Shown here piece after piece: positions 5,251 through 21,435 of a DNA stretch of 37,251 nt. Made by a program: the position numbers and the translations under genes. A model generated the notes under the pieces. The model was not told where the DNA came from, searched no databases, and worked only from the letters and a program-made list of their open reading frames with translations. The stretch comes from an uncultured Candidatus Peregrinibacteria bacterium (GTDB lineage: Bacteria; Patescibacteriota; Gracilibacteria; UBA1369; LOWO2-01-FULL-3), in assembly GCA_903847465.1 (NCBI GenBank), contig CAINDQ010000146.1:1-37251 (forward strand). The letters are read 5' to 3'. The number at the start of each line of letters is the position of its first letter. Within the stretch, counting starts at the first letter, position 1.

Positions 5251-5338
5251 GGAGAGATCGCATAGTGGTCGAGTGCGCACGCTTGGAAAGCGTGTAGGTG
5301 TCACAGCCTCGGGGGTTCGAATCCCCCTCTCTCCGCCA
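5251..5338 (+). tRNA. tRNA-Ser(GGA)
   Basis: Acceptor GGAGAGA/TCTCTCC, anticodon arm cacgc-ttGGAaa-gcgtg, long variable arm, GGTTCGAATCC T-arm, encoded 3' GCCA. Confidence 0.98.
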
Positions 5339-5347
5339 TTAAGTAGC

Positions 5348-5463
5348 GAGATTTCCGGTCCGGAGCGCAGGCAAACTCGCACGTTTGCCGGAGCATAGGA
5401 CTTTGCTCAAGGAAAATGCTTCGCGAACAGCGAAAATTTTCCGTAGAGCAAAGAGGAAATCCC
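5348..5463 (+). other. Structured intergenic element, copy A (three-way junction)
   Basis: Outer stem gatttcc/ggaaatc; arm 1 gtcc-GGAGCGCA-ggcaaac..gtttgcc-GGAGCATA-ggac; arm 2 ctttgctc/gagcaaag, ggaaaat/attttcc, ttcgc/gcgaa. Confidence 0.7.
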
Positions 5464-5476
5464 TATTGAACACAAC

Positions 5477-5782
5477 ATGACAAAACTCGACAAATCTTTC
5501 GTAGAATTCATCCTTGAACAAATCCAAGACGCTGGATATATTTCCCATAAATACATGTTTGGCGGATGCGCAGTTTATTGCGACGATAAAGTCGTCGCGC
5601 TCATTTGTGATAATCAGCTTTATATAAAACCAACCATGTCTGGCAGAAAATTCATCAAAAATCCCCGAGAGTTTCCTCCCTATCCAAGCGCAAAAAACTA
5701 CTTTTTGATTGAAGACGAAATCGAGAATAGAGAATGGCTTTGCGAACTAGTCCGAATAACCGCTGAAGAATTGAAAAAATAA
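5477..5782 (+). CDS. TfoX/Sxy N-terminal domain protein
   Basis: 101 aa; KYMFGGCAVYCDDKVVALICDNQLYIK and PPYPSAKNYFLI are characteristic. Confidence 0.9.
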   Translation: MTKLDKSFVEFILEQIQDAGYISHKYMFGGCAVYCDDKVVALICDNQLYIKPTMSGRKFIKNPREFPPYPSAKNYFLIEDEIENREWLCELVRITAEELKK

Positions 5783-5800
5783 CGAAATTGAAAACATGAG

Positions 5801-5814
5801 CCCCTCTCTCCCCA
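5801..5814 (+). repeat. Partial duplicate of the tRNA-Ser 3' end (att-like scar)
   Basis: cccctctctcc-cca versus tRNA cccctctctccgcca (5324-5338): 11 bp identical, then a 1-nt gap. Confidence 0.45.
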
Positions 5815-5957
5815 TGGTGAATTTGTAAAAAAGTAAAATTTCCAAATTTTCTGATTTTTTTACTTTTTGAATTTTTGAATTTTTTACAGTTTCGCGAAAA
5901 GAAGTCCGACCCTCTCGGCCGTCTCAGTCACACCAGCCACCCAGCCCTCAGCCGCCC

Positions 5958-6485
5958 TTAATAAACCAAAATCCTCCCAATCCCTCTCTCTTTATCTCTA
6001 GGAATAATTTTCCTCGGTTTCAAATCCCCAATCGCAAAAACATAAGAAACCACTCTCGTTCCACCTTTGATTCGCTTTTCAAAAAACCCCTGAAGTTTTT
6101 TCAAACTATGAGTCATCATATAACAAACAATCACATCCGCATCTTTTACGTCCTTACTTTTGAAATTCGCTCGAACCATTTTTCCTTTCCACCCAAACAA
6201 CCACTGCTTCATTTTTGCCAATAAAAAAACTCCCGGATCAACTTCATATCCAATCGCATGAGCCCCATAATCCTTTTCCGCATAGTGCAAAAAACGGCCA
6301 TCTCCAGCCCCTAAATCATACAAGATTTCGCCTTTTTTAATTTTGGCATGTTTCAAAACTTCATGCACAGCGACAATTGGTGTCGGCACAAAAGGCGCCA
6401 CCCCGAAAAAAGCGAGGTAACAATTTACGCAAAGATACACCACCACCACGCACATCACCGCTAAAGAAATAATTCCAAAAATCAT
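5958..6485 (-). CDS. Membrane-anchored class I SAM-dependent methyltransferase (FAM173-like)
   Basis: N-terminal TM helix, APFVPTP, motif I LYDLGAGDGR, GYEVDP, TRVVSYVF. Confidence 0.88.
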   Translation of the reverse strand: MIFGIISLAVMCVVVVYLCVNCYLAFFGVAPFVPTPIVAVHEVLKHAKIKKGEILYDLGAGDGRFLHYAEKDYGAHAIGYEVDPGVFLLAKMKQWLFGWKGKMVRANFKSKDVKDADVIVCYMMTHSLKKLQGFFEKRIKGGTRVVSYVFAIGDLKPRKIIPRDKERGIGRILVY

Positions 6486-6491
6486 AAAACC

Positions 6492-6500
6492 ATTGTATCA
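6492..6500 (-). promoter_or_regulatory. Extended -10 promoter, probable leaderless mRNA
   Basis: TGA-TACAAT followed by 6 nt then ATG 6485. Confidence 0.55.
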
Positions 6501-6564
6501 ACAAACTATTTATTTTTCCATCTCCGTGCTAATATTCTCCTGTATATCTTAACCCCTCTATCCT

Positions 6565-6810
6565 ATGTTAAAACCAACTGCGTTTGGCGTCACCCTGGGA
6601 TTCTTCGGCTTCATTATCTGCGGAGGCTTTATGGTGGCCTCTATCCTCACTGGATTCGGAAAACCTCTTCTTGATCTTCTCGGCCCTCTACACCCATGGT
6701 ACTCATTTAGTTATATCGGTGCATTGTGGATGGCAGTCTTCCACTTCATCGCTCTATATATTTTGGGCGGATTGTTTGTTGTTGTTTACAACGGGTTAGC
6801 AAAGAAGTAG
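6565..6810 (+). CDS. Small two-TM membrane protein (DUF5676/putative holin-like type)
   Basis: 81 aa; AFG near the N-terminus, LHPWYSFSYIG loop, and GGLFVVVYN end. Confidence 0.65.
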   Translation: MLKPTAFGVTLGFFGFIICGGFMVASILTGFGKPLLDLLGPLHPWYSFSYIGALWMAVFHFIALYILGGLFVVVYNGLAKK

Positions 6811-6849
6811 AAATTGCCTCAACTTTTGTATTTTCTAAAACCAAGCCAT

Positions 6850-7704
6850 ATGAACAAGAAATTTTTTGTGGGAATTCTGCTGTCTTCATTAGTGTTTACG
6901 CTGACAGCATGCTCGATCGTTGTTGCGCCAGTCGTGCCAGAACCAGTTGTTGAAAAACCAATCTCTACCGACTTAATAAAAGTCACTACTCCAACCCCAA
7001 ATTTATCAGTCACAAGTCCGCTTGAAATAAGCGGCGAAGCAAAAGGTCCTTGGTTTTTTGAAGGATCAGCGCCTGTGAAATTATTGGATGCTAATAGCAA
7101 AGTCCTTGCTGAAGGAATCGCTCAGGCCCAAGGAGATTGGATGACTGAAAATTTCGTTCCATTTACCGCCTCACTGACATTCTCGACCCCAACTACAAGC
7201 ACAGGAACCCTTGTTCTTTCCAAAGATAATCCATCGGGCTTACCTGCAAACGATAAATCCGTAAGCATTCCAGTAAAATTTACAACCACCAACGAAACAG
7301 AAGCTTTTGTAGAAACCATGACTGTAAAAGTTTTCTTCAGTAACACCAAACTCGATCCAGAAATGCAGTTTTGCAACAAAACTTATCCGATAAACAGAAT
7401 TATTCCAAAAACAACGGGGGTTGCAAGAGCTGCTGTAGAAGCCTTGCTTAAAGGAATTTCGAAAGCAGAAGAAGACGCTGGATACGTTGACCAAATCAAC
7501 GCCGGCGTAAAAATCCAAAGCCTCTCAATTAAAAACGGAATAGCCTACATCGACTTCAACCAAGCACTTCAAGAAAAAGTTGGCGGATCATGTAAAGTCG
7601 GAGCAATAAGCTCTCAAATCACCGAAACGCTAAAACAATTTTCCACAATAAAAAGCGTCGTCATTTCTATAGACGGCGATTCTGAAACAAGTTTACAACC
7701 ATAG
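6850..7704 (+). CDS. Lipoprotein with Gmad2 Ig-like and GerMN domains
   Basis: Start moved to ATG 6850 (MNKKFF..., lipobox LTAC); GEAKGPWFFEG...DWMTENFVPF...KDNPSGLP (Gmad2); GGSCKVGAISSQITETLKQFSTIKSV (GerMN). Confidence 0.88.
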   Translation: MNKKFFVGILLSSLVFTLTACSIVVAPVVPEPVVEKPISTDLIKVTTPTPNLSVTSPLEISGEAKGPWFFEGSAPVKLLDANSKVLAEGIAQAQGDWMTENFVPFTASLTFSTPTTSTGTLVLSKDNPSGLPANDKSVSIPVKFTTTNETEAFVETMTVKVFFSNTKLDPEMQFCNKTYPINRIIPKTTGVARAAVEALLKGISKAEEDAGYVDQINAGVKIQSLSIKNGIAYIDFNQALQEKVGGSCKVGAISSQITETLKQFSTIKSVVISIDGDSETSLQP

Positions 7705-7709
7705 ATTTC

Positions 7710-8954
7710 ATGGAGCAGTTATTAAATCACTGGGGATATTACCTTTTATTGCTAGCATCATTATTTGAAACAGCGCCTCTTGTCGGCATGTTGATCCCCG
7801 GACAAACCCTCGTTATTGCGGGAGGATTTTTTGTGAAATTAGGAATTCTCCATTTTGCTCCTTTGATTTTTATCGTATCTATAGGCGCAATTCTAGGCGA
7901 CACCATCGGTTATTTAATCGGTCGCAAATATGGCTATCGCTTCATCGCTAAATATGGAAAATATTTTTTCCTCAAAGAAAGCAATTTTGAAAAAGTTCAA
8001 AAACTAATGCACGGCCATACCGGAAAATCATTGATTATTGGCAGATTTAATTCCATCACCCGCGCTATCGCTCCACTCATTGCCGGCTCATCAAAAGTCG
8101 ATGCAAAGAAATTCTTCCTCTACAATATAGTAGGCGGAATTCTCTGGGCATTCGCCTTTGTAATGCTCGGCTATATCTTTGGTCAAAGCTACGAAATAGC
8201 CTCAAAATACGTCGGATCCCTCTTTTTCATCGCCGTTATTTTAAGTGTCATCATTGTTTACATTTATCGCTTCATCAACAAACAACAGCATCTTTTCAAA
8301 AAATATCACCTATACGCACTCTCCATTTGTATCATTTCTTTATATGCATTTTCGGAGATAGCGGACGAAGTTTTTGAAAAAGGATTCATTGTAAATATCG
8401 ACCAATGGGTTAACACAAATGTTCAACTTTTATGGAATCCCCTGCTTAACGCAATCATGATTTTCATCACAAATATTGGAGGCCTGATAAACATCATCAC
8501 TCTCTCCATCGCTTTATTTGCAGGCCTCATGATGGCAAAGAAAAAATACAACGCTGCACTTCTTTTACTCGGCATGGGTGGCGGCATTTTGACCGTAGAA
8601 ATAATAAAATCCATCGGCGAAAGACTTCGTCCGGACAACTCTCTAATCCAAGTTTCCGACTATAGTTTCCCAAGCGGACACACCACTATGTCCACAATTT
8701 TCTTTTCACTTCTTCTCTATTCTTTCAAGGACGATATCAAAAATCCAATCCTGAAAAAACTATTCATCTTTGGCTGTATTGCCCTATTTGTTTTGATAGG
8801 ATTCAGTCGCATTTATCTAAACGTTCATTGGTTCAGCGACGTCATGGCGGGCTTTTCTTTGGGCTTATTCTGGCTCACTTTGCTAATTTTGATCTTTAAA
8901 GTTACAATATTCCTCGCAAAGTTACGTAAAAAAGATCTGCCTAAAAAATCATGA
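7710..8954 (+). CDS. DedA-PAP2 fusion (undecaprenyl-phosphate recycling)
   Basis: DedA motifs LIPG, GDTIGYLIGR, GRF; PAP2 motifs KSIGERLRP, SFPSGH, SRIYLNVHWFSD. Confidence 0.93.
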   Translation: MEQLLNHWGYYLLLLASLFETAPLVGMLIPGQTLVIAGGFFVKLGILHFAPLIFIVSIGAILGDTIGYLIGRKYGYRFIAKYGKYFFLKESNFEKVQKLMHGHTGKSLIIGRFNSITRAIAPLIAGSSKVDAKKFFLYNIVGGILWAFAFVMLGYIFGQSYEIASKYVGSLFFIAVILSVIIVYIYRFINKQQHLFKKYHLYALSICIISLYAFSEIADEVFEKGFIVNIDQWVNTNVQLLWNPLLNAIMIFITNIGGLINIITLSIALFAGLMMAKKKYNAALLLLGMGGGILTVEIIKSIGERLRPDNSLIQVSDYSFPSGHTTMSTIFFSLLLYSFKDDIKNPILKKLFIFGCIALFVLIGFSRIYLNVHWFSDVMAGFSLGLFWLTLLILIFKVTIFLAKLRKKDLPKKS

Positions 8955-9523
8955 ATAAAGAAAATAAGGAACTTTTAAATTTCTTCTTTGAACTAGGCCA
9001 GCTCCGCAGAATTAAGCATGAAGGATGGCGCACAATCGGAATCACTCATCCTGAAAGTGTCGCCGACCACAGTCTTCGCGCCGCTCAGATTGGCTTCTTT
9101 CTGGCAAAACTAGAACATTACAAAAACCCTGAAGAAATCTCCACGATGCTGGTTTTTCATGACGTAGCAGAATGCCGCGTGGGAGATATTCACAAAATTG
9201 CCAACAGGTATATCAAGGTAGACGAAAGCCAAGCGGTAAAAGATCAGCTCTCAAAACTGCCTGAATTCAGCAAAGAAATTTATAGATTTTGGGAAGAAAC
9301 AGAAATGCAAAAAACCGTAGCAGGATGCATCGCAAAAGACGCCGACCTGCTCGAACAAGCCATCACCGCTAAAGAATATATTGAAAAAGGACACAAATTC
9401 GCTCAAGATTGGATAAACAATATTGCCAAATTGATAAAAACCAAGTCAGCAAAAAAATTACTAAAAGATCTCGCCAAATCAAATTCGAACGACTGGTGGC
9501 AAGGCATCAAAAAAATATTTTAA
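8951..9523 (+). CDS. HD-domain hydrolase (YfbR/HDDC2-like 5'-nucleotidase)
   Basis: EGW, ESVADHS, FHDVAECRVGDI, KDADLLE; ATGA overlap with the upstream gene. Confidence 0.9.
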   Translation: MNKENKELLNFFFELGQLRRIKHEGWRTIGITHPESVADHSLRAAQIGFFLAKLEHYKNPEEISTMLVFHDVAECRVGDIHKIANRYIKVDESQAVKDQLSKLPEFSKEIYRFWEETEMQKTVAGCIAKDADLLEQAITAKEYIEKGHKFAQDWINNIAKLIKTKSAKKLLKDLAKSNSNDWWQGIKKIF

Positions 9524-9543
9524 TTAATAACTTTTAAAAAATT

Positions 9544-10272
9544 ATGGCTCTCAAAAAAAACAACATAGCGATGGGGCTTATCCTCCTCATCACTCTCTCT
9601 GCAGGCATTATTATCGGCTCCTACATCCCAAAAATTGAAACAGTTTTGGAAAAAAGAGAAGTTGCCGAGAAGGAAGCAAAAATTATGGAACAATTAAAAA
9701 AAGACCGTGTCCTAAATGAAAAAGATTTCTCGATTGGTATGCCAGCTGGATGGGCTGGAATAAATCCAATGCCAGGAACTTCCGCTACAATTGCCTACAT
9801 CAACGAACAAATTACTGACCCAGCTTTGAATAAAATCAACTTCAGAAGTTACTACGCTATTACCTACGACACCCTAAACAAAAGAACTCTGTTAGGATAT
9901 AACGTTTATCTAAAAAACACTCTAGCAAAACTGCTCCCTGGAATAAAAATAACAAAAGAAACCAGCGAAAAAATAAATGGCAAAGATGCTCGCTTCATTG
10001 AAGCGGCAGTCATGCAACGTGGTACAAACTTCAACGTACTTGTTGCTACAATCCTAGGAAACAAAGATGACGTTTGGACTCTTTCTTTCAATATTGGCGC
10101 AGTAAACTGGGAGGCTTACAAAGATATGTTGTATAGCATTGCCAGAACTTTTACTCTAAAAACAGCTGAAGAGATTGCTGCTGCTGAAGCTGCAAAAGCC
10201 GTACCAACAACAGCACCAGGCTCGCCAACCGCACCACCGCCAACTACTACCGCCCCAAATGCGCAAAAGTAA
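9544..10272 (+). CDS. Membrane-anchored PsbP/DcrB-like protein with Pro/Thr/Ala-rich tail
   Basis: N-terminal TM; FSIGMPAGW, KINGKDA, IARTF pattern; tail PTTAPGSPTAPPPTTTAP. Confidence 0.6.
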   Translation: MALKKNNIAMGLILLITLSAGIIIGSYIPKIETVLEKREVAEKEAKIMEQLKKDRVLNEKDFSIGMPAGWAGINPMPGTSATIAYINEQITDPALNKINFRSYYAITYDTLNKRTLLGYNVYLKNTLAKLLPGIKITKETSEKINGKDARFIEAAVMQRGTNFNVLVATILGNKDDVWTLSFNIGAVNWEAYKDMLYSIARTFTLKTAEEIAAAEAAKAVPTTAPGSPTAPPPTTTAPNAQK

Positions 10273-10729
10273 TCCAGACACAATTTCTCTTTCCAAAAAC
10301 AAGAAAGCTTTTCACGACTACGAAATTCTGGAAGCCTTTGAAGCAGGGATTGTTTTGACTGGCGAAGAAGTGAAATCGATTCGAGATAGTCAGATGAATC
10401 TCAAGGGCTCATATGTAGAAGTCACAAATGAAACCGCTTTTTTGAATGAAGCGCACGTTTCTCGTTACAAATTCTCTTCAAGCAAAGAATACAATCCAAC
10501 TCGCCGCCGCAAACTCCTCCTCCACAAAAAACAAACTCTCAAAATAGACAGCGCCATTAGCCAAAAAGGAGTCACTGCAATCCCCCTCGAAGTCTATTTG
10601 AAAAAAGGCCTAATCAAAGTTTCTGTCGGAATCTGTCGTGGTAAAAAACTTTACGACAAACGCGACAGCCTCAAAAAGCGCGACCAAAAACGCGACATCG
10701 ACAGCGCCATAAAAGAGCTAAGGGACTAG
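10259..10729 (+). CDS. smpB: SsrA-binding protein SmpB
   Basis: NKKAFHDY, EAGIVLTGEEVKSIR, RRKLLLHK, GKKLYDKR. Start moved to ATG 10259, which overlaps the upstream gene by 14 nt. Confidence 0.97.
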   Translation: MRKSNPDTISLSKNKKAFHDYEILEAFEAGIVLTGEEVKSIRDSQMNLKGSYVEVTNETAFLNEAHVSRYKFSSSKEYNPTRRRKLLLHKKQTLKIDSAISQKGVTAIPLEVYLKKGLIKVSVGICRGKKLYDKRDSLKKRDQKRDIDSAIKELRD

Positions 10730-10800
10730 CAAAACATCCTCCCCTTTCCTTATTTAGCGTTTTTCTTTATAATGACCCCCTATCTTGATTTTACAAATAT

Positions 10801-11553
10801 ATGCACAACACTTACACAAAATTGATCGCGGGTATTCAAAAATATTTCAGGCTTGCCGGAATTGATAAAGCCGTCATCGGCGTAAGTGGTGGAGTTGACT
10901 CCGCCCTTTGCTTGAAACTTGTCGTCGACGCCCTTGGTCCAGAAAGAGTCACAGGACTTTTGATGCCGGAAAAAGGCATTTCTTCAGAGGAAAACATCTC
11001 TCATGCCAAAACTTTGTGTGAATTTATGAAGGTCGAGTACCACACCATTTTCATCAACAAATTTCTGACTGACTATGTCACTCTTCCTTGGCAACCAAAT
11101 GAACTTGCTCAGATAAATATGAAGGCTCGTATCAGAATGATTTTGCTTTATAACTTCGCAAACACAAACAACACTCTCGTAATCGGCACTTCAAACAAAA
11201 CGGAATTAGCGCTTGGCTATGGCACAAAATACGGCGATCTCGGCGCGGACATTGAGATTATCGGAGACTTACTTAAAGAAGAAGTTTATGCGCTAGCAGA
11301 ATATGTTGGTCTTCCTGATGAATTTTTGACGAAGGCTCCGTCAGCAGAACTTTATGCCGGCCAGACTGATGAAGAAGAGCTCGGTTTAACTTACAAAGAA
11401 ATCGATCCAGTTCTCAAACATCTCGAGAAAGGATTAGCGAAAGAAGAAATTATCAGTAAAGGAATCAACCCAAATTCTGTCCTCAAAATATTCAGACTGA
11501 TGGAATTAAATAGACACAAGCTTGTTCCTCCATATATAATTCTGCTGAAATAA
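10801..11553 (+). CDS. nadE: NH3-dependent NAD(+) synthetase
   Basis: SGGVDS, NMKARIRM, GTSNKTE, GYGTKYGD, KAPSAEL..GQTDEEELG; no glutaminase domain. Confidence 0.95.
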   Translation: MHNTYTKLIAGIQKYFRLAGIDKAVIGVSGGVDSALCLKLVVDALGPERVTGLLMPEKGISSEENISHAKTLCEFMKVEYHTIFINKFLTDYVTLPWQPNELAQINMKARIRMILLYNFANTNNTLVIGTSNKTELALGYGTKYGDLGADIEIIGDLLKEEVYALAEYVGLPDEFLTKAPSAELYAGQTDEEELGLTYKEIDPVLKHLEKGLAKEEIISKGINPNSVLKIFRLMELNRHKLVPPYIILLK

Positions 11554-11562
11554 TTTTGCACT

Positions 11563-12129
11563 ATGCAATCAGCCTTATTTTTAGGAAGATTTCAACCGTT
11601 TCACAAGGGACATTTGAGCGTGATCAAAAAAATTCTCAAAACAAACGAGAGAGTTATTATTGCAATTGGCAGTGCCGAACAAAACTATCTTCCTCAGAAT
11701 CCTTTCACTGCGGCCGAGAGATTTCAAATGATCGAAGAAAGCCTGAAGGAAGCCAAAATCCCTTGCGACAAATATTGCATAATTCCAGTCAGAAATATTT
11801 TCAATTATGCACTTTGGGTCAATCATGTGAACACATACGTTCCTCCATACACGCGCGTTTACACCGGTTCGAAATTAATCAGAGCATGCTACGAAGGAAA
11901 ATATTTTAGACAAACAGAGAAAGTTCCGTACGCTCCGGAGATTATTCGCCTAAAAAGAATTTTACCAATCAGTGCCACAAAAATTCGCACAGCAATTTTG
12001 AAAAATAAACCATGGAAACACTTAGTTCCCAAAGCTGTTGTTCAAAAAATAGAAAAATGGAAAGCTGTTGATAGAATAAAAACAATCAAGGATACTATCG
12101 ACACTACAAAGTTCAACAGCGCTTACTAA
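11563..12129 (+). CDS. nadM: Nicotinamide-nucleotide adenylyltransferase, archaeal/NadM type
   Basis: GRFQPFHKGH, IGSA, NPFTAAER, LWVNHV, ISATKIR, WKHLVP. Confidence 0.9.
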   Translation: MQSALFLGRFQPFHKGHLSVIKKILKTNERVIIAIGSAEQNYLPQNPFTAAERFQMIEESLKEAKIPCDKYCIIPVRNIFNYALWVNHVNTYVPPYTRVYTGSKLIRACYEGKYFRQTEKVPYAPEIIRLKRILPISATKIRTAILKNKPWKHLVPKAVVQKIEKWKAVDRIKTIKDTIDTTKFNSAY

Positions 12130-12140
12130 AAAATCTCACC

Positions 12141-13550
12141 ATGATCAATCCACACATATTTCGTGCTTATGATATTCGCGGTATCGCCGATTCCGAAGGA
12201 TCCGACAAACCTGCCGACTTAACAGAAGAATCCGTCTATTTAATTGGAAAAGGTACCGGAACATACTTGAAAGCCAAATACAATACAGCAAACATGGCTG
12301 TAGGACGCGACAATCGCCTAACCGGCGAAAAATTACAAAGAGCTTTTACGAAAGGTGTTTCCGAGGCTGGAATCGACGTTGTCGACGTCGGACTAGCAAT
12401 TTCACCAATGATATATTGGGCCTCTTGCGCTCTTGATTTTGACTCCGCCACAAACATCACGGCTAGTCATAATCCAAAAGAATACAACGGAATTAAAACT
12501 GTTACCAAAAATGCTCACTCAATTTGCGGTGATGAGTTGCAAGAAATTAAAAAAATAATTGAATCAGAAAAATTAGTCACATCAGAAAAACTTGGAACAA
12601 TTTCTCAACAAAACATTCGCCCAGATTATCTCGAAGACTTAAAATCTCGTTTCCAAATTTCTCGAAAATTAAAAATAGTTGTCGACACCGGAAATGGAAC
12701 TGCCGGCATTTTTGCTCCAGAATTTTTACGTTCACTTGGACACGAAGTTGTCGAATTATATACAGAGCTCGACGGCACTTTCCCTAATCACGAAGCCAAT
12801 CCTGAGGAGCTCCACAACATGCAAGATTTGATTAAAAAAGTGCTCGAAGAACACGCTGATTTCGGAATTGGATTCGATGGCGACGGCGATCGTGTTGGTG
12901 TTGTGAATGAAAAAGGGCACATGTATTCTTCCGATTTTATGTTACTGCTTTTGGCAAAAGATTTACTCACTCGCGTAAAAAATCCAAAGATTGTTTTTGA
13001 TATAAAAGTTTCTCAGGCAATCATAAATCGCATGCAAGAACTCGGCGCCGAACCAGTGATGAGTAAGACTGGCCACAGCTTTATTGAGGCCAAAATGAAA
13101 GAATTAAAAGCTCCTTTGGCTGGAGAAGTATCGGGACATTTGTTTTTCGGAGAGAATTATTATGGCTTTGACGACGCGTTATTGGCCGCTGGAAAAATCG
13201 CCCAAATCATTTCGAATTCAGAGACTCCTCTTTCTGAAATGTTCAATGATTTACCAAAAGTTTTCACCACTCCCGAATTCAAAGCTCATTGTCCTGACGA
13301 CAAAAAATTTGAAATAATAAAAAATCTCCAGGATCATTTTACAAAACTTTATCCATGCATCACCATTGATGGCGTCCGTATAAACTTCGACGAAAATTCT
13401 TGGGGAGCCATTCGTGCCTCAAACACAAGCCCAAACTTGACTCTCCGTTTTGAGGCGGATACAAATAATCGCCTGAATGAGATTCAAGCGATTATGGTTT
13501 CTGAATTGAATAAATATCCTGACGTCAGCCTCGACTGGTACAAATCCTAA
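12141..13550 (+). CDS. Phosphomannomutase/phosphoglucomutase
   Basis: FRAYDIRG, TASHNP, FDGDGDR, GEVSGH, IRASNT. Confidence 0.96.
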   Translation: MINPHIFRAYDIRGIADSEGSDKPADLTEESVYLIGKGTGTYLKAKYNTANMAVGRDNRLTGEKLQRAFTKGVSEAGIDVVDVGLAISPMIYWASCALDFDSATNITASHNPKEYNGIKTVTKNAHSICGDELQEIKKIIESEKLVTSEKLGTISQQNIRPDYLEDLKSRFQISRKLKIVVDTGNGTAGIFAPEFLRSLGHEVVELYTELDGTFPNHEANPEELHNMQDLIKKVLEEHADFGIGFDGDGDRVGVVNEKGHMYSSDFMLLLLAKDLLTRVKNPKIVFDIKVSQAIINRMQELGAEPVMSKTGHSFIEAKMKELKAPLAGEVSGHLFFGENYYGFDDALLAAGKIAQIISNSETPLSEMFNDLPKVFTTPEFKAHCPDDKKFEIIKNLQDHFTKLYPCITIDGVRINFDENSWGAIRASNTSPNLTLRFEADTNNRLNEIQAIMVSELNKYPDVSLDWYKS

Positions 13551-16500
13551 TTCCCTTCTGCGTTCAACATCGCCGACGTGATTGGTGAATAATACAGATA
13601 GAACGGTTTGCTTGAACGAGAGAGTAGAGATTCTGTTCCTACGTCTGCCGGTCTACCAGAACGCAAATCTCCCATTTTAGGCACCTCTACAACTTCAGTT
13701 GATGAAGTAGCCACTTTCACAGTAATCAACCCCACCGCCGCCTGTATTCCGTCACATTTCGACAAGTCTGGATTTCTCACACACGGCTGATCTCCATAGC
13801 TCTCATTTGAGACAGGCTCTCCGCAAACATCCGCGTTGATATCGTTTGAAAGCATCAATTGTTCATCTACGGTCAAACACTTTCCGCAGGCTAAATCCAC
13901 GACAAGCCCAACCGGACAGTTATCGATATTGACGCCTTCGGAGTCCTTAACAGCAGTGTCAAACACTCCACCTCTATACAATCTAAACGCATTCCAGTCG
14001 TAATACATTGAGCTTAGAATACTATCTACGGCCTCGTAAGCACCATTCAAATGACGCCCTTTATCAACCAGACTCGAAATTCCCATACTGGTCTTTGCGG
14101 AAACAGCTCCCTTCATAAACAACTGCGAACTCTCTTGATGACTTCCGCTATAGAAAGCATTGAGATTTTTTAATTCGGGACTATTATCCTTTAGTTGACT
14201 AAAAACATTGTTAGAGTCCGTAACCATCGGGAAGGGCAACATGGATCCATCCGCCACAATCGCCACGTTAGAAAGAGTCGTTACATCGTCGGCAATGTAT
14301 ACATTTCCACCAACGTTTTTACCGGTATTATCCTTTGCACTCAAAGCCACTATCACGAGTTGGCTTTTCCCGTTAAAAGCCTCGTCTTCATCGTAAACAT
14401 TTTTATTTATCAACACGTTTCCCCCCTCCACCACCAAAATCCTTTTTCCAATATATTCAAACGCTGATTCGGATGGCAATACTCTCGACTCTATTGTTGA
14501 CTCTATTTTTCCAAGCACCACGTCCACTCCATAGAAATAATCTGCCTTCTCTTCTCCTACAAGGATTGCCAGTTTGTAACGACTGCTGGAGCAACCCGTG
14601 CCACCCATAACGCTCATATCCTCTTTAATTATGCATTTTTGTGTGTCATCACCGCTTACAATATCCTGTTTTGTCATTGTTTCCATATCCTTCCCTCCCT
14701 TCACATATTTCGTCACCTGTCGATGAGCGGTATCTCTAACGATATTGGAGACCTGACTTCCTGAAGGAGACAAATTATCGGTAACATCTGCAGAGAACAC
14801 CATCGCTGAATAAATCGTCCCATGAATAATCGCCGCAAAGTTATCCAAAACTCCACGTTCTATTCTAGGAAGTTTGTTTGAATAATACTTGATCTCTTTG
14901 TCCTCAATATTGTAACTAATCGTACTATTCAAAGTTGGCGAATCAATTTTGGTGCAAATGGCCTGTGGAACAGCTGGAGTCCCTGGCAATTGAGGCGTTA
15001 TTTTTAAAGTAGAAGTTGTCCCTACAAACTTCAATGGAACATCGCTTCCATTTACGCCCATGCCTTTACTAACTTTGCAAGGTGATACCGCTGAAGGAAT
15101 AAGATTTGTGGAGTCACAGCTAGGTTGAGCAATTAAATCATTGGTGGCCTCTAACAAAAATCCGAATTTTTTGCCAGCGGTCTCGACATTCTGATCACAA
15201 CTGATATCAGCCTTGCCGCTATACCCAAGCGTCAACTCAACTTTTGGATTTGCTTTATCAAAAAGCTTACTCGAGTTTCTACTAAGTCCTACATTTACGT
15301 TCACGGGGATATCTCTATATCCCGCTATTGCATCTTTTAGATCTGTAGTTTCTAGTTTTGACACCTCCAACCATGGCTTAAATTTAAAATAGGCTGGAGC
15401 ATCATACGGAGTAACGCTTCCGCCAACAGTATCCGCATCCTGCCCTGGCGCCCCAGGAGTAATTACCTCGTACAAAATTCTTTCCAACTTTAAATCGTTT
15501 CGTGCCGCAAACGTTTTCCCAAAAAATTTCTCATTATCAAACACAGAGTTAAATCCCGTCACATCATTTAGAATAGTTTGAATTATAGATACATTTCCAG
15601 CAGTTGTTGGCGCGCAAGACTTAATTTTTTTCTCATCCGTTAATTTGTAATGCCCAGTCTCGCCGCTAACCTTCTCAATCCATTTGTTCGGTTCATTTAA
15701 ATTCGCAGAAGTTATTGAAATCGTCGTCGGTTTAAAGGCAACACCTCCTCCGCTACCAACCTCTGTAAACGGACTTTCGCCAGCAAAAGGCTCCCCTACC
15801 GAAGGACTTGTTTGATCAATCTTCACCGTATCCGTCCACACAAACTCCAAATTAATAGTTTCATTGGTTAGATCTTTTGGATCACCAGCGGCATTCCTTA
15901 AAAATAATTCCATCCCATACCCATCACTACAATCCGCAACAGGAAAATATGGTAAACTTTCTGAATCCACAAAGGTAGGTTCAGGAGAAAACTCTACACA
16001 AAGATCCCCACCCGAAACAAGTTTGCAATAAAGAGGGTCATTTTTGCAAAGTAGATCATTTGTATATTCAGGTAGAACACAACATGCTACGTCATCGATA
16101 GGTGGTAAACACTGAGGGACTTCGCAAACAGGAGAGTCAGTTAGATATCCTTCTCCAGCCTCACAACAATAACATGCTGCATTTGTAGGATCCGCCAACT
16201 GAGCCGCATTACACCCACCACACGCTAAAGGCTCGCAAATCTCTGGCGTTGGCTCAAGACAACAAGGCCAACCAGCCGTATCAATATTACAAAGAGAATC
16301 CTCTGTCGGAATCTCGATTGTTCCGCCTGTAAAATCCAAATAAACTCCAGCCTGCGTCCAGCCATAACCAGAAAGACTCCATCTGTTAGTGCCCGCCTGT
16401 TTAGTTGCTATAACTCCATAGTCTCCAGAGACTCCAGCCCCATTATCGTATTCTCCACTAAAAGAAATGTATCCAAAAGCAGGATTCCAGGCTTCTCCCG

Positions 16501-17656
16501 TAAGCTTTCTAGTGTCGTCAGTAGCCTCGCCCACTTTTACCCCATAATTATATATTCCGCACTCTATTCCCAAATTATTGCCTTGAGTGCTCACGTTATC
16601 TCCATCACAAAACAAAGATATAAATCCAAGATTTGTATTCCAAACATAGCCTTTCAAAGGATTGCTGTTGCCCACTTTTGTGGTAACACAAGCTGACTGC
16701 TCCTTTGCAGGAGCATATCCCGTCCCCTGCCCGATAATAGACAAATCTACTGTCTTCGAAGGAGTTCCTATTTTGTCCCAATCAACGTCCTCGTGCGAAC
16801 TAAAATTTGAAATTCCATGATCTTTTTGAGCCTCTGCAGCTTTGCTGGTTTCCCCCGCGATTCCGCCAATACATGCCCCCGCACCATCTGTCGAAGTTAC
16901 TATAGCTCTACTAATTTCTACTCCATTATCGAGTAAAACCGCTTCTATTGTTTTACTTGCTCCAAGCTTAAAAGAGGTCGTCGCCGTTACCGTTTTTTTA
17001 CCCTCTCCAACCTTAAAATTTACCGGAGAATAAGTTAGAGGAACAACATCGTAATCGTTCGCAACAAATTTAGGAGAATATGAACTTATAGCCGCACTTC
17101 CTTCAAATCTCAATCCATACGATTTTGCCTGCGTTGCCTTGGCTCCATTCGGGAATTGAATTGAAAAAGTCACGTCTTTCCCAGGAATAACCATTGCAGA
17201 AGAAGCTGAAATGGTTGGAGTCAGGACAACTGGGGCTGCTACCGTAATCGTCTGAGATGAAGGCGTATCGAGCATAACCTGAGTAGGATCTGCAGAATAA
17301 CCCGCTATTTGAAGAGTAATTGTATTTGGTCCTGAATAATTAGCAGGAATCGAAAATTGAGCTGATCCACTTGGGTCACCCTCAGGTATATTTATTGGAT
17401 CAGCGGTCAAGGAATAATCAGTAGTGCCTATTACGCCTATATCTGCATCAATATAATCATCCGAATATTGCGGAACCGCGGTTACGGTTACTGTTATTGG
17501 CACGCCTGGAGTAATCGTGTTTGAACTAACGCCTAGTGTCAACCAATGATGTGGCTGAGGTGCACGCGCCATCGCACTTCCGCCCCAAATTGCGCTCGCC
17601 AACACAGCAAAAATCATCATCCTCGCCACGTAAGATAAAACGTTTTTCTTATACAT
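13547..17656 (-). CDS. Large secreted/surface protein with Ig-like N-terminus, GxxW repeats and Cys-rich segments
   Basis: Likely start ATG 17656 (MYKKNVLSY... signal peptide); repeats GYVWNTNLGFISL, GEAWNPAFGYISF, GYGWTQAGVYLDF; 16 Cys in 98 aa at 15998-16291. Confidence 0.8.
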   Translation of the reverse strand: MYKKNVLSYVARMMIFAVLASAIWGGSAMARAPQPHHWLTLGVSSNTITPGVPITVTVTAVPQYSDDYIDADIGVIGTTDYSLTADPINIPEGDPSGSAQFSIPANYSGPNTITLQIAGYSADPTQVMLDTPSSQTITVAAPVVLTPTISASSAMVIPGKDVTFSIQFPNGAKATQAKSYGLRFEGSAAISSYSPKFVANDYDVVPLTYSPVNFKVGEGKKTVTATTSFKLGASKTIEAVLLDNGVEISRAIVTSTDGAGACIGGIAGETSKAAEAQKDHGISNFSSHEDVDWDKIGTPSKTVDLSIIGQGTGYAPAKEQSACVTTKVGNSNPLKGYVWNTNLGFISLFCDGDNVSTQGNNLGIECGIYNYGVKVGEATDDTRKLTGEAWNPAFGYISFSGEYDNGAGVSGDYGVIATKQAGTNRWSLSGYGWTQAGVYLDFTGGTIEIPTEDSLCNIDTAGWPCCLEPTPEICEPLACGGCNAAQLADPTNAACYCCEAGEGYLTDSPVCEVPQCLPPIDDVACCVLPEYTNDLLCKNDPLYCKLVSGGDLCVEFSPEPTFVDSESLPYFPVADCSDGYGMELFLRNAAGDPKDLTNETINLEFVWTDTVKIDQTSPSVGEPFAGESPFTEVGSGGGVAFKPTTISITSANLNEPNKWIEKVSGETGHYKLTDEKKIKSCAPTTAGNVSIIQTILNDVTGFNSVFDNEKFFGKTFAARNDLKLERILYEVITPGAPGQDADTVGGSVTPYDAPAYFKFKPWLEVSKLETTDLKDAIAGYRDIPVNVNVGLSRNSSKLFDKANPKVELTLGYSGKADISCDQNVETAGKKFGFLLEATNDLIAQPSCDSTNLIPSAVSPCKVSKGMGVNGSDVPLKFVGTTSTLKITPQLPGTPAVPQAICTKIDSPTLNSTISYNIEDKEIKYYSNKLPRIERGVLDNFAAIIHGTIYSAMVFSADVTDNLSPSGSQVSNIVRDTAHRQVTKYVKGGKDMETMTKQDIVSGDDTQKCIIKEDMSVMGGTGCSSSRYKLAILVGEEKADYFYGVDVVLGKIESTIESRVLPSESAFEYIGKRILVVEGGNVLINKNVYDEDEAFNGKSQLVIVALSAKDNTGKNVGGNVYIADDVTTLSNVAIVADGSMLPFPMVTDSNNVFSQLKDNSPELKNLNAFYSGSHQESSQLFMKGAVSAKTSMGISSLVDKGRHLNGAYEAVDSILSSMYYDWNAFRLYRGGVFDTAVKDSEGVNIDNCPVGLVVDLACGKCLTVDEQLMLSNDINADVCGEPVSNESYGDQPCVRNPDLSKCDGIQAAVGLITVKVATSSTEVVEVPKMGDLRSGRPADVGTESLLSRSSKPFYLYYSPITSAMLNAEGN

Positions 17657-17743
17657 AGAAAATTCATTAGGAATAAGAGTATTAACTAGCTTTAAATCTA
17701 GCACAAAGTTAGGAAAGAACAAATGTTTTCTCTCCTCAACTTT

Positions 17744-20071
17744 CTACTCCTCTTCTCCCTCTTTTTTTCCGTCTGCACCGACCGTGAATTTTTCGCCACT
17801 TTTATTCTCCACAATTATTCCTTTGCCATCTTTAGTGTTTTCCAGAGGTCTGTCCCATGTTGCAAATTTGCATTTTGGATATTTATTGCAGCCCCAGAAT
17901 ACTCTTCCGCCCTTTCTGGTTCGTCTTTCTACTAATTGGCCACTTCCACATTTTGGACATTTTACGCCAGAAAATACCGTTATGGAAACAATATTTTTGC
18001 AAGTTGGATAATTTCCACACCCTAAGAATGGTCCGTATTTTCCATTTTTTATTTCCATAGCTCCTCCGCATTTTTCGCATTTTTTATCTTTGAATTTCTT
18101 TTTCAATTCCTGAACTTCTTTGGATTCCAATTGTTGTTCGTGAGTTTGTTCACCCTCGTCTTTCCCCATATGCCCACCTTCACCATTCTTCAAAGGCTTT
18201 GCGTTTTTACATGTTGGATAATTACTGCATGACAAAAATTTTCCAAATCTTCCCAATTTAATAATCATTTTTGATCCGCATTTGTCACAAATTTCCGTAC
18301 TCTCTTCGTTCACGATATCTGATTTTTTTAAAGTCTTGTCTTTTTCAATCACATTCTTGTTAAACGGCACGTAGAAGTCACGAATTACAGGCACCCATTT
18401 CCTTTTTCCCTCCTCAATTTCATCTAACTTCGCTTCCATTTCCGCAGTAAATTGATAATCCACAATGTCCTTAAAATTCGCCACCAAAACATCCGTCACC
18501 ACCATTGCCACATCGGTCGGTTTCAAAGCTTTTCCATCTTTTTCAATGTATCCACGAGTCATGATTGTTGAAATTGTTGGCGCATAAGTAGACGGTCTAC
18601 CAATGCCTTCACTCTCCAATTTTTTCACCAATGACGCCTCCGTATATCTTGCTGGTGGTTTTGTAAAATGTTGCTCATCTACCAATTTTTCCAAAGAAAC
18701 TTTTTCGCCTTCAGCAAGCGCTGGCAAGAATTTTTCACCGTCTTGTTTTTCTTCTTCTTCCAAATCTTTTCCTTCCATATATACCTCCATAAATCCTGGA
18801 AATTTTACGGTTTGTCCTGTCGCCACAAATGTCGCAACAGACTCTTTTTCCCTTGCAGCCGTGATTTCAGCGGCCACTCTTTCCAAAATTGCCTCCTTCA
18901 TCTGACAAGCAATTGTTCTTTTCCAAACTAAATCATAAATTCTCGCCTGATCTTTTGTTAAGAATTTTTCAGCTTGATCAGGATGCAAAGTTAAATCGAC
19001 CGGACGAATAGCTTCATGCGCTTCTTGCGCCCCTTTTCTTCCTTTATATTTTCGCGGAGTATCCAACACAAATTCTTTTCCAAAATGTTTTCCAATTACT
19101 TCTTTCGCCACACCCAAAGCAAAATCAGACAAATTCACACTATCAGTTCTCATGTAAGTAATAAGACCTGTTTCGCCACTTCCAGTATCCACACCTTCAT
19201 AAAGTTGCTGAGCAATCATCATCGTTTTCTTCACAGAGAAGCCAAGTTTTCGAGATGCTTCCTGTTGAAGAGTAGAAGTAATGAATGGTGCAGCTGGACT
19301 TTTTACTACCTGTTTTTGTTCAATGTTTGTAATTTCATAATTCGATCCTTCTAGATTTTTCAAAATATCTTTCGCCTGTTTTTCATTTTTAATTTCAACC
19401 TTTTCTTTTTTATAATCACGCAAAGAAGCTTCGAAACTCTTCTGCAATTTGCTTAATTTTTTATCTTCTTTTTCGAATAAACCGGTAATGCTCCAGTATT
19501 CATCAGTTTTGAATGCTTGAATTTCGCGTTCTCTTTCTACTACAAGACGCACCGCCACACTCTGCACACGTCCTGCGGAAAGCCCGTATCTCACCTTCTT
19601 CCATAATAAAGGAGAAAGTTCATAACCCACCAACCTATCCAAAACTCTACGCGCTTGTTGGGCGTCTACAAGATTTTGATCAATATCGCGAGGATGTTGC
19701 AAAGCTTCCTTAATAGCCTTTTCGGTAATCTCATGAAAAGCGATTCTCTTTGCTGGAATTTTCGACTTAGCAACTTTTAAAACCTCCATTAAATGCCATC
19801 CAATAGCCTCTCCTTCGCGGTCCTCATCAGTCGCGATCCAAAGTTTTTTTGCTTTCTTAAGTTCGTCCTGCAGTTGCTTCACCACTTTCTTTTTATCCAC
19901 CGAAATCAGATAGCTGGGTTTGAAATCGTTTTCAATTTCGATACCCATCTTTGATTTAGGCAAATCACAAACGTGCCCCATCGAAGCAAGCACTTTATAA
20001 TCTTTTCCCAAGAATCTCGAAATGGTCTTCGCTTTTGCAGGAGACTCCACTATTACTAAATTTTCAGACAT
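17744..20071 (-). CDS. topA: DNA topoisomerase I
   Basis: LVIVESPAKAKTI, ATDEDREGE, SAGRVQS, catalytic ITYMRTD, three C4 zinc ribbons. Confidence 0.98.
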   Translation of the reverse strand: MSENLVIVESPAKAKTISRFLGKDYKVLASMGHVCDLPKSKMGIEIENDFKPSYLISVDKKKVVKQLQDELKKAKKLWIATDEDREGEAIGWHLMEVLKVAKSKIPAKRIAFHEITEKAIKEALQHPRDIDQNLVDAQQARRVLDRLVGYELSPLLWKKVRYGLSAGRVQSVAVRLVVEREREIQAFKTDEYWSITGLFEKEDKKLSKLQKSFEASLRDYKKEKVEIKNEKQAKDILKNLEGSNYEITNIEQKQVVKSPAAPFITSTLQQEASRKLGFSVKKTMMIAQQLYEGVDTGSGETGLITYMRTDSVNLSDFALGVAKEVIGKHFGKEFVLDTPRKYKGRKGAQEAHEAIRPVDLTLHPDQAEKFLTKDQARIYDLVWKRTIACQMKEAILERVAAEITAAREKESVATFVATGQTVKFPGFMEVYMEGKDLEEEEKQDGEKFLPALAEGEKVSLEKLVDEQHFTKPPARYTEASLVKKLESEGIGRPSTYAPTISTIMTRGYIEKDGKALKPTDVAMVVTDVLVANFKDIVDYQFTAEMEAKLDEIEEGKRKWVPVIRDFYVPFNKNVIEKDKTLKKSDIVNEESTEICDKCGSKMIIKLGRFGKFLSCSNYPTCKNAKPLKNGEGGHMGKDEGEQTHEQQLESKEVQELKKKFKDKKCEKCGGAMEIKNGKYGPFLGCGNYPTCKNIVSITVFSGVKCPKCGSGQLVERRTRKGGRVFWGCNKYPKCKFATWDRPLENTKDGKGIIVENKSGEKFTVGADGKKEGEEE

Positions 20072-20303
20072 AAAAATAATTTAAAAGTTGTATGAATTTT
20101 TACCACACCATTGTTATCGCCTTTTAAGCGCTTGTCAAAAATATTTTTTCTAACATAAAGAAAACGGCTTGTAGATAACGAAACATATTAAAATCGTTTG
20201 CAACAAAATTTGAGAACGGCTTAAACAAGCCAAAAAACAATATTTTTTCCATCAAAAAGGGCTAGTTTTCCCTGTATTAAGCGATTGTCAAGTTTTAAAT
20301 CGC

Positions 20304-20331
20304 TTGATTTCAAAAAACAAAGCCATATAAT
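20304..20331 (+). promoter_or_regulatory. Putative hup promoter
   Basis: TTGATT-16 bp-TATAAT about 100 nt upstream of hup. Confidence 0.45.
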
Positions 20332-20433
20332 GCACGTAGGCTTTTCGAGAAATAGGGGAAATTTCTCATTCTAATCAGGAAAATTCAAATTTATTATTCT
20401 CTATTTAAATTATTTCCTTAACCCACGTCTATT

Positions 20434-20709
20434 ATGACAAAGCAAGATTTAGTGGCTACAGCAGCACAAGCAGCTGGAGTTACAAAGAAAGCTGCAGGTG
20501 AGGTTCTAGAATCAGTTCTAGGATCAGTTACAAAGAGCCTTAAAAAAGGTGAAAACGTAACAATCACAGGTTTCGGCACATTCCGCATTTCAAAGAGAGC
20601 GGCTCGCACAGGTGTAAACCCAAGAAACCCAAGTCAGAAAATCAAGATCCCAGCAATGAAGCTTCCAGCTTTCAAGGCAGGAAAATCATTGAAGGATGCT
20701 GTTAGATAG
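20434..20709 (+). CDS. hup: DNA-binding protein HU
   Basis: MTKQDL, GFGTF, RAARTGVNP, PAFKAGKSLKDAV. Confidence 0.97.
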   Translation: MTKQDLVATAAQAAGVTKKAAGEVLESVLGSVTKSLKKGENVTITGFGTFRISKRAARTGVNPRNPSQKIKIPAMKLPAFKAGKSLKDAVR

Positions 20710-20726
20710 TCTGATACATTCTTTCG

Positions 20727-20760
20727 AAAAGGCCCTTTGATTTATCAAGGGGCTTTTTTT
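20727..20760 (+). terminator. Intrinsic terminator after hup
   Basis: aaaa-ggccctttga-ttta-tcaaggggct-tttttt. Confidence 0.88.
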
Positions 20761-20761
20761 G

Positions 20762-20913
20762 TGAAGCGGAGAGGTAGGCGTTCCGAAGCGAACCCGCCGT
20801 AGGTGGGGAAGCGCAGGACTTTTTTCGCTGAAAGTTGCGACGGTCAGGAGCAAAACTTTCGAGAAAAAAGAGCCGGACCCCGTTGAAGCGGAGAGGTAGG
20901 CGTTCCCCGTTGA
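20762..20913. repeat. 23-bp direct repeat flanking element B
   Basis: tgaagcggagaggtaggcgttcc at 20762-20784 and 20884-20906; ccccgttga at 20878-20886 and 20905-20913. Confidence 0.9.
20763..20886 (+). other. Structured intergenic element, copy B
   Basis: Arm 1 ttcc-GAAGCGAA-cccgcc(gta)ggtggg-GAAGCGCA-ggac; arm 2 cttttttc/gaaaaaag and gaaagtt/aactttc; same layout as 5348-5463. Confidence 0.65.
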
Positions 20914-20920
20914 GAGTTTT

Positions 20921-21340
20921 CTATTTATTCCCAAACAACACGTACTTCCTCATGAAAAAGTTCCACAAATACACAATCGTAGCCGCCATCACCTTCGAAA
21001 ACATATAATAGATATGCAATCTTTCCGTAAAGAACCAAAGCCCCATTTCCGTTAAGGCAAGTCCAGCAACGCCGATCAAACAATAAATAATAAATTCCAC
21101 CTTCACGTTCTTTATAGATCTTTTTTTGAATGCCCAATTCACGCTGAGCAAATAACTAATAACGAGTCCAAACAAAAAAGCGATTGCCGCTGAATACAAA
21201 TAATATATCTTTGCAAATTCTGTTAGTGAAAATAATATCGTGAAATCCACAATCGTAGTCGTAAATCCAACTACCGCATATCTAAAGAATTCAAAATAAA
21301 ATCCCTCCCCGTCCGTCAATTTTCTAAAAAGTTTTCTCAT
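20921..21340 (-). CDS. GtrA-family flippase
   Basis: FFRYAVVG...VD, SYLLSVNWAF, LWNFFMRKYVLF; four TM helices. Start moved to ATG 21340. Confidence 0.92.
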   Translation of the reverse strand: MRKLFRKLTDGEGFYFEFFRYAVVGFTTTIVDFTILFSLTEFAKIYYLYSAAIAFLFGLVISYLLSVNWAFKKRSIKNVKVEFIIYCLIGVAGLALTEMGLWFFTERLHIYYMFSKVMAATIVYLWNFFMRKYVLFGNK

Positions 21341-21346
21341 ACAGGC

Positions 21347-21375
21347 AGAATACGAATATCCATGAACTAAGTCAA
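21347..21375 (-). promoter_or_regulatory. Sigma70 promoter giving a leaderless gtrA mRNA
   Basis: TTGACT-17 bp-TATTCT-6 nt-ATG 21340. Confidence 0.6.
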
Positions 21376-21435
21376 CACCGCTTCCAAAGACTTGCAAAGA
21401 ATGTTACATTTAGCCAAAATAACCGCCAACAAAAC

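Follow-up and report, generated by a model that had tools for sequence, protein, structure and literature searches.

Two stretches of a contig from an uncultured Candidatus Peregrinibacteria bacterium (CAINDQ010000146.1, assembly GCA_903847465.1; positions 1 to 37,251, all 37,251 nucleotides of which are called the window here) raise the question of whether two divergent sequences with matching stems, one behind a tRNA gene (copy A) and one behind hup (copy B), represent a common element, and if so of what kind. In what follows, G000 denotes the window's own genome, G0xx and G2xx the genomes of relatives, Cnn contigs of G000 and Lnnn loci of copies in relatives. We found that copies A and B are members of one family of interspersed non-coding structured repeats which, in the genomes searched, occurs only in a single class within the Candidate Phyla Radiation (CPR). 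The preliminary description of this DNA had read in both stretches the order (G/T)TCC, GRAGCnnA, hairpin, GRAGCnnA, GGAC, CTTT.../...AAAG hairpin and closing stem, and this pattern is present as described.

When copies A and B were folded singly, the same three-way junction was the minimum-energy structure of each. The closing helix, P1, has an outer part (AGUAG with CUAUU in copy A, AGCGG with CCGUU in copy B), a conserved middle in which G-c-G-A-G faces C-C-C, and a variable inner part of 6-7 bp. P2 starts from a (G/U)UCC/GGA(C) base; above it a GC/GC step lies between two 3x3 GNA/GNA loops, and its apical hairpin is variable. P3 is a long hairpin, and the whole element measures 120-155 nt. 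A consensus of 58 distinct copies reads A-gu-n-G-c-GAG, cG-n-uCC-g-n-AG-cg, g-n-ag-cG-n-AGGa, junction Ag, CCC-ua-UU-ga. The bounds first assigned, 5348-5463 and 20763-20886, enclosed two real copies but needed revision, because the closing helix continues through conserved AGUAGCGAG on the 5' side and CCCUAUUGA on the 3' side; the element is therefore longer, with copy A at 5341-5469 and copy B at 20764-20886. Measured against shuffled sequences, the folding energy of copy A was exceptional (z = -5.92; 0/200 shuffles as stable). That of copy B was unremarkable by itself, since its z was only -2.42 (1/200 shuffles) and fell to -0.78 (42/200) with the flanks included. The three-way junction was the minimum-energy fold of nine of the ten copies folded, with z from -1.67 to -5.92. 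Two copies alone are thus insufficient for the claim, which is carried by the family as a whole, with its 13 copies in G000 and the covariation seen over 39 copies.

A motif scan of G000 (1.39 Mb in 159 contigs, 95.85% complete, 39.7% G+C) gave a third copy, and a covariance model built from these three copies returned 13 full copies in that genome (E <= 2e-15). The covariance-model search proposed in the preliminary description thus yielded many further copies, in G000 as well as in relatives. In an alignment of 39 copies, which was fitted to the covariance model and so leans towards structure, 92.8% of the cells were paired, and both sides had changed in 32 of 39 pairs (302 cells). None of 500 shuffled controls reached these values, and when the partners were slid by 1-3 columns pairing dropped to 33-53% (maximum 53.4%) with at most 107 compensated cells. 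An independent run of MAFFT and RNAalifold on 23 copies, picked for diversity out of about 73, recovered P1, P2 and basal P3, with compensatory changes in 24 of 29 pairs. These data bear out the earlier claim of structural selection: covariation is strong in the 39-copy alignment, and the independent run arrives at the same fold.

The structure is under selection on one strand. Within paired cells G-U combinations far exceed A-C combinations (88 against 28 in a 60-copy alignment, 40 against 7 in G250, 36 against 11 in G267), which identifies the sense strand as the folded one, and the sense fold was more stable than the antisense fold in 76 of 80 copies. Copy B had been said to favour the plus strand, and it does so (-47.1 kcal/mol sense, -34.2 antisense); copy A is nearly equal on both strands (-54.6 and -53.3 kcal/mol).

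We then have a family whose range can be stated. The element occurred in 15 of 41 genomes, G000 included, and in 12 of the 24 other genomes of its family; two congeners had 19 and 22 matches. With a second covariance model, built from 39 copies, 38 of the 151 genomes sampled from the order and 24 of the 151 from the class proved positive; 21 candidates per genome were scored here, and counts of 20 are read as at least 20. A phylum-wide sample of 150 other genomes, 143 of them outside the class, contained no element. Carrying genomes hold from 1 to at least 22 copies. A search of public genome contigs with a narrow pattern returned a single record, labelled "uncultured Candidatus Peribacteria bacterium", and a pattern search of metagenomes gave 20 loci, of which two were true copies according to the model. 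The hosts belong to Peregrinibacteria-like CPR bacteria whose genomes measure about 1 Mb.

Known RNA families did not account for the element. Rfam 15 returned only tRNA for the whole window at gathering scores, nothing credible covering the element between 5200 and 5600 at E up to 10, and no match to the C159 copy at E up to 1; our literature search found no description of such an element. The suggestion of a new RNA motif or of an element like REPs or miniature inverted-repeat transposable elements (MITEs) is therefore supported by the further copies, the covariation and the lack of any matching Rfam 15 family.

Conservation across the class extends beyond the helices to loops, bulges and junction strands, and the core is constant while the apical hairpins vary between copies. 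Such a pattern would agree with a family of trans-acting small RNAs, in which each copy would be cut from tRNA or mRNA precursors as a stable RNA of ~130 nt, probably bound by a conserved protein at the GcGAG/CCC helix and at the twofold-symmetric GNAGCGNA loops; the twofold symmetry of P2 suits a dimeric binder. We think this quite unlikely, since no partner protein was found (TROVE (Ro) and RtcB are without a match in G000), the genes neighbouring the G000 copies are unrelated housekeeping genes, and no conserved promoter was seen upstream of the copies that lack a co-oriented gene, as checked in G250 and G267. A patchy distribution with relics of decay is likewise ill-suited to an essential RNA gene. 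A narrower idea, that the element is a Y RNA, was prompted by GGUCCGAAG and rejected because neither PF05731 (TROVE) nor PF01139 (RtcB) had a match in G000; no Rfam Y RNA matched either.

Almost everywhere the element abuts a gene boundary with its 5' end, and the type of boundary varies by lineage. Eight of the 13 copies in G000 start (by the model start) 1-2 nt past the CCA of a tRNA gene on the same strand (Arg-TCT, Lys-TTT, Arg-GCG, Leu-TAG, Arg-TCG, Thr-GGT, Glu-TTC and Ser-GGA), and a ninth lies behind a degenerate tRNA-Gly-like 3' end. In a first set of 52 copies from relatives, at least 16 adjoin a tRNA 3' end and seven start at the stop codon of a same-strand open reading frame (ORF) of more than 100 open codons. 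Those stops fall within the first 3-8 nt of the element, as the UAA or UAG of uAAGUAGCGAG, and ftsZ is among the ORFs concerned, in two genera. Where an ORF is convergent, its stop often lies within the reverse complement of CCCUAUUGA. A further 80 copies, a non-random sample drawn from the better-scoring matches listed for eight genomes, included 19 that adjoin a tRNA 3' end and seven that adjoin an ORF stop. At three loci (L159, L166, L168) the 3' arm of the element is itself the first 13 nt of a co-oriented tRNA-Leu gene, and the 5' arm has changed to pair with them. As a separate observation, a conserved extension, AGYACAGGRAWGCTC, directly follows the 3' end of about one third of the copies in G250 and G267 (L135, L138, L145, L149-L151, L153, L160). 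Flanks of 200 nt gave no clear pattern for what lies downstream of the copies in these two genomes, where a reading of TGA as a sense codon might also obscure the picture.

Such precision is what a host-functional, cis-acting RNA module might display. The element would then be a 3' trailer that defines or protects the upstream 3' end, helps to release tRNAs in a lineage without RNase Z and stabilises mRNAs, and in another order it would also act as a 5' leader pairing with the first bases of tRNA-Leu, as the 13-nt overlap with its adapted 5' arm suggests. Copies start 0-4 nt past the gene end and are always co-oriented with tRNA 3' ends (8/8 in G000, 19/19 in the 80-copy set); the copy next to the tRNA is intact and relics lie distal to it; and intact copies with compensatory changes occupy the same sites across genera and families. 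No score over the NCBIfam cut-off for RNase Z was obtained in any of the 41 relatives, in which only weak metallo-beta-lactamase matches were seen, and the host tRNAs encode their CCA. However, the element is dispensable, for half of the family's genomes do without it, and those are without RNase Z too. Its presence varies between congeners, only 8 of 43 CCA-encoding tRNAs of G000 carry it, and in other lineages the neighbour that many copies face is the 5' end of a divergent gene. Nor is it an intrinsic terminator, because a T run (at least 4 T in the last 5 nt plus 15 nt downstream) accompanies only 21 of 131 distinct copies. We consider a host module unlikely. The best partial RNase Z matches came from G021 and G023, both without the element, and from G038.

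The 5' edge that coincides with gene ends, the concentration of conserved nucleotides in the junction and internal loops, and the lack of a detectable RNase Z in the lineage would also accommodate a novel ribozyme whose self-cleavage at the 5' edge frees the upstream tRNA or mRNA. We hold this to be very improbable. No likeness to any Rfam ribozyme family was detected at E up to 10, relatives that lack the element lack RNase Z as well, and the copies that face gene 5' ends would have nothing to release.

Comparison of relatives revealed turnover of the element. Tandem arrays are common, and truncated relics are stacked downstream of full copies. Some copies are mosaic: copy A and the copy on C15 are near-identical in their 5' halves and differ in P3. 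The short duplication reported beside copy B, at 20884-20912, is present but is probably a second tandem copy that has lost its core, with the 5' arm joined straight to the 3' arm. The corresponding mini-copy at L019 results from a deletion between two GGCG repeats. Some copies (L035, L038, L019, L040, C159:440) are accompanied by fragments of tRNA 3' ends. Between congeners the element is gained and lost: copy B at the hup site is found in G000 only and is missing from G001 and G002; the site between uvrB and the DUF2207 gene is filled in G000, occupied by an unrelated ORF in G001 and, in G002, empty with overlapping stop codons of the two genes; and the aroE site holds one copy in G000 and two in G001. 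The preliminary description had recommended a search for empty sites, and this search succeeded in part. Genome comparison supplied the empty uvrB/DUF2207 site in G002 and the unfilled hup sites in G001 and G002, whereas four DNA sequencing runs compared with the window showed paralogous copies and contig breaks only and gave no usable empty site.

Taking these results together, we favour a non-autonomous, slowly spreading repeat of the REP/ERIC/BOX kind that in this organism lodges exactly behind tRNA genes and stop codons, whose 3' trailer it would form in the transcript, a reading that we judge about evenly balanced between right and wrong. The likeness is drawn because the family is clade-restricted and patchy, with variable copy number even between close relatives, because its multiple structured copies are intergenic, modular and slow to turn over, and because no enzyme of its own was found. 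Both its function and its means of spread are what we infer from this pattern. A copy would be co-transcribed with the upstream gene as a 3' trailer, and the fold could persist because only folded copies propagate, through an effect of the trailer, or both. Lying 3-4 nt past the CCA, a compact fold might leave a short single-stranded linker for the endonuclease that frees the tRNA, and it could also shield the upstream RNA from 3' exonucleases.

Searches for a mobilising enzyme were consistent with a non-autonomous element. Two associations proposed at the outset were not borne out in G000: a link to RAYT transposases, for PF01797 (Y1_Tnp) had no match in this 95.85% complete genome while control genomes were positive, and a link to reverse transcriptases, for PF00078 (RVT_1) had none either. 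Among the 41 genomes TnpB exceeded its cut-off only in G003, which lacks the element; rve had no match in the copy-rich G000, G001, G002 and G004 and does not track the element across the 41. G000 has one tyrosine recombinase, far from every copy. A parental autonomous MITE was not apparent: the copy-rich genomes gave no rve or TnpB, and in G000 we saw no larger segment flanked by stray 5' or 3' arms. The terminal sequences AGUAGCGAG and CCCUAUU form outer P1 with imperfect pairing and behave more like a covarying helix than like fixed repeats. Two patterns had no match in viral contigs, and phage and plasmid records gave no blastn match. The idea that the element marks a tRNA att site was rejected: the inserts flanked by remnants measure 0.1-0.3 kb and hold no gene, and the single tyrosine recombinase is not near the copies. 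Elsewhere in G000 no 3'-end remnants of the eight host tRNAs were found (at most 3 mismatches over 18 nt).

Several observations weigh against the slowly spreading repeat that we favour. The G000 copies are old and divergent, with a median pairwise identity of 0.53 (range 0.40-0.91), which is not the picture of a recent burst, and only 8 of that genome's 43 CCA-encoding tRNA genes carry the element. The filled and empty pair at uvrB/DUF2207 (G000 and G002) shows no flanking duplication other than the element's own arm, in a comparison whose flanks are only ~79% identical. Different genera have intact copies at the same sites, namely the L015/L033 site and those behind tRNA-Ser-GGA, tRNA-Arg-CCT and ftsZ; such retention is no less compatible with a host function than with a selfish repeat and leaves real room for a role in 3'-end formation. 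Moreover, 13 of the 80 copies adjoin the 5' end of a divergent tRNA, and in another order a divergent ORF has its ATG within 0-4 nt of the element's 5' end at 9 of 19 copies in G250 and at 6 of 14 in G267, against at most 1 in shifted controls. Sense transcription at these divergent starts is hard to explain, though the sense fold is kept there. Finally, the enzyme search covered six mobile-element enzyme families only.

The copies at divergent gene starts leave room for a mechanism at the level of DNA. In that case the folded DNA strand would be the recognition structure of a single-strand-specific enzyme, of the HUH type or a recombinase, and would spread via single-stranded DNA at the replication fork in the manner of REP/RAYT or of IS200/IS605 ends. 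Since folded DNA tolerates G-T pairs in the way that RNA does, the strand bias fits here too; copies at divergent starts are hard to transcribe in sense; and the conserved 5' motif contains GTAG, a hallmark of REPs. In G004 the orientation is uniform on each contig (4/4 plus on that genome's own C2, 5/5 plus on its C3, 2/2 minus on its C6), but this bias does not separate replication from transcription, because the copies there also follow co-oriented genes. With Y1_Tnp unmatched in G000, TnpB in no element-carrying genome, the sole tyrosine recombinase of G000 remote from the copies, and viral contigs, phage records and plasmid records without matches, we find this explanation rather remote. 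A broader possibility is a new mobile element that seeks out gene boundaries. Its folded single strand, whether RNA or DNA, would be placed by its 5' end with base precision at tRNA and ORF ends and would spread without a known transposase, HUH enzyme or reverse transcriptase. This we regard as unlikely; it would mean that CPR bacteria possess an unrecognised mobilising enzyme or have co-opted a housekeeping enzyme of tRNA processing or recombination.

The slowly spreading repeat that we favour can be set beside several known systems. REP/BIME sequences are extragenic and multi-copy, fold on one strand, are often tandem, carry GTAG at the 5' side and can stabilise the upstream mRNA. The element described here is likewise extragenic and multi-copy and shares the one-strand fold, the frequent tandem arrangement and the GTAG at the 5' side, but REPs are hairpins of 20-40 nt, whereas this is a 120-155 nt three-way junction and no short simple palindrome, in a genome (G000) without a RAYT (Y1_Tnp) match. 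ERIC/IRU and Correia (NEMIS) elements are imperfect palindromes of ~100-150 nt in transcribed intergenic DNA, and their RNA fold alters the processing or stability of neighbouring transcripts; we know of no cognate transposase for them in the genome. They are two-armed hairpins with terminal inverted repeats, and Correia elements have a TA duplication; our element, in contrast, has a branched fold whose loops are conserved and is strongly tied to tRNA genes, and no target duplication could be read for it. Dictyostelium TRE and yeast Ty3 are retrotransposons guided by Pol III factors to tRNA genes. By analogy only, the repeats gathered beside tRNA genes in a gene-dense genome follow the same "safe haven" logic; unlike those retrotransposons, the new element is base-precise at mature tRNA ends, and no reverse transcriptase was found in G000.

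The BOX, RUP and SPRITE repeats of Streptococcus pneumoniae are described by Croucher et al. 2011 (PMC3049150) as small intergenic elements that are interspersed, extensively folded, limited to a narrow clade, co-transcribed with their neighbours, slow to transpose and more likely parasitic than specialised for the host. With BOX our element has in common that both are modular, small, interspersed, structured and intergenic. It has no sequence relation to BOX, RUP or SPRITE, is a three-way junction rather than a chain of modules, and is conserved class-wide where theirs are confined to one or two species. It also lies exactly at gene boundaries, tRNA ends above all. What sets it apart from REP, ERIC and BOX jointly is thus a branched fold with conserved sequence, conservation throughout a class, and base-precise placement at tRNA and ORF ends.

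These results add a class-wide structured element, absent from Rfam, that can be annotated in CPR genomes with a covariance model. Its base-precise position at tRNA ends, in a lineage in which no RNase Z was found, offers a concrete substrate for studies of CPR tRNA maturation. If the element is mobile, it would constitute a repeat family without a known mobilising enzyme in some of the smallest and most compact bacterial genomes, and would bear on how selfish DNA fares under strong streamlining. The element also explains some contig breaks in these assemblies. Contigs from a source-like sequencing run stop at 5338, the border between tRNA and element, and at 20848/20857, within copy B; the repeat thus seems to interrupt assemblies of short reads.

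The features of the window, together with the relics seen in G000 and its relatives, are collected in the table below. The gap of 8 nt between copy A and the TfoX_N ORF leaves no space in between for a promoter of the ORF's own.

Table. Features around copies A and B in the window, and relics of the element at other loci.
Feature	Position	Strand	Basis or remark
tRNA-Ser (GGA), encoded CCA; copy A 2-3 nt behind	5251..5338	+	ARAGORN, Rfam tRNA
Copy A, full element; covariance-model match 5339-5472, 113 bits	5341..5469	+	model, folding (z -5.92)
Copy A, 5' strand of P1: AGUAG (outer), G-c-G-A-G (middle, conserved), GAUUUCC (inner)	5342..5356	+	
Copy A, P2 hairpin: GUCC/GGAC base, two 3x3 GNA/GNA loops flanking a GC/GC step, 7-bp apical stem	5358..5401	+	
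Copy A, long hairpin P3: 7-8 bp at the base, then a small internal loop, a 7-bp stem and an apical hairpin	5402..5453	+	
Copy A, P1 3' strand: GGAAAU, CCC, UAUU	5455..5467	+	
TfoX_N-domain ORF, ATG 8 nt past copy A	5477..5782	+	context
hup (HU) gene, upstream of copy B	20434..20709	+	context
GC-rich hairpin and T run behind hup, putative intrinsic terminator; copy B directly behind	20729..20761	+	by eye
Copy B, full element; covariance-model match 20762-20889, 132 bits	20764..20886	+	model, folding
Mini-copy: 5' arm (UGAAGCGGAGAGGUAGGCGUUCC) fused to 3' arm (CCGUUGA)	20884..20912	+	like relics at L010, L019
3'-fragment relics	two behind C33:2661; others behind C15, C132, L014, L027, L039		
5'-arm relics	L017, L022, L029, L031, L043		
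Mini-copies (5' arm joined to 3' arm)	window 20884-20912, L010, L019		

Between copy B and the next gene, G000 has an ORF for a GtrA-like membrane protein (window 20921-21397, minus strand). This ORF is absent from the same site in G001, where ~80 nt separate hup from the next gene.

Some further tRNA genes of G000 have other sequences at or near their ends. Behind tRNA-Ser-GCT (C97:20890-20914) only a short relic of the 5' arm, AATAATGGCGAGAAATG, follows. A second, unrelated repeat, TTAGGAAAAACTTTAGGAA, stands directly past the CCA of tRNA-Leu-GAG and tRNA-Thr-CGT (C63:1295-1320 and C79:3411-3435). Lastly, C103:581-1869 holds a cluster of seven tRNAs, of which six or seven do not encode CCA, in contrast to the genome's other 43 tRNAs; this cluster may be phage-derived or a binning contaminant.

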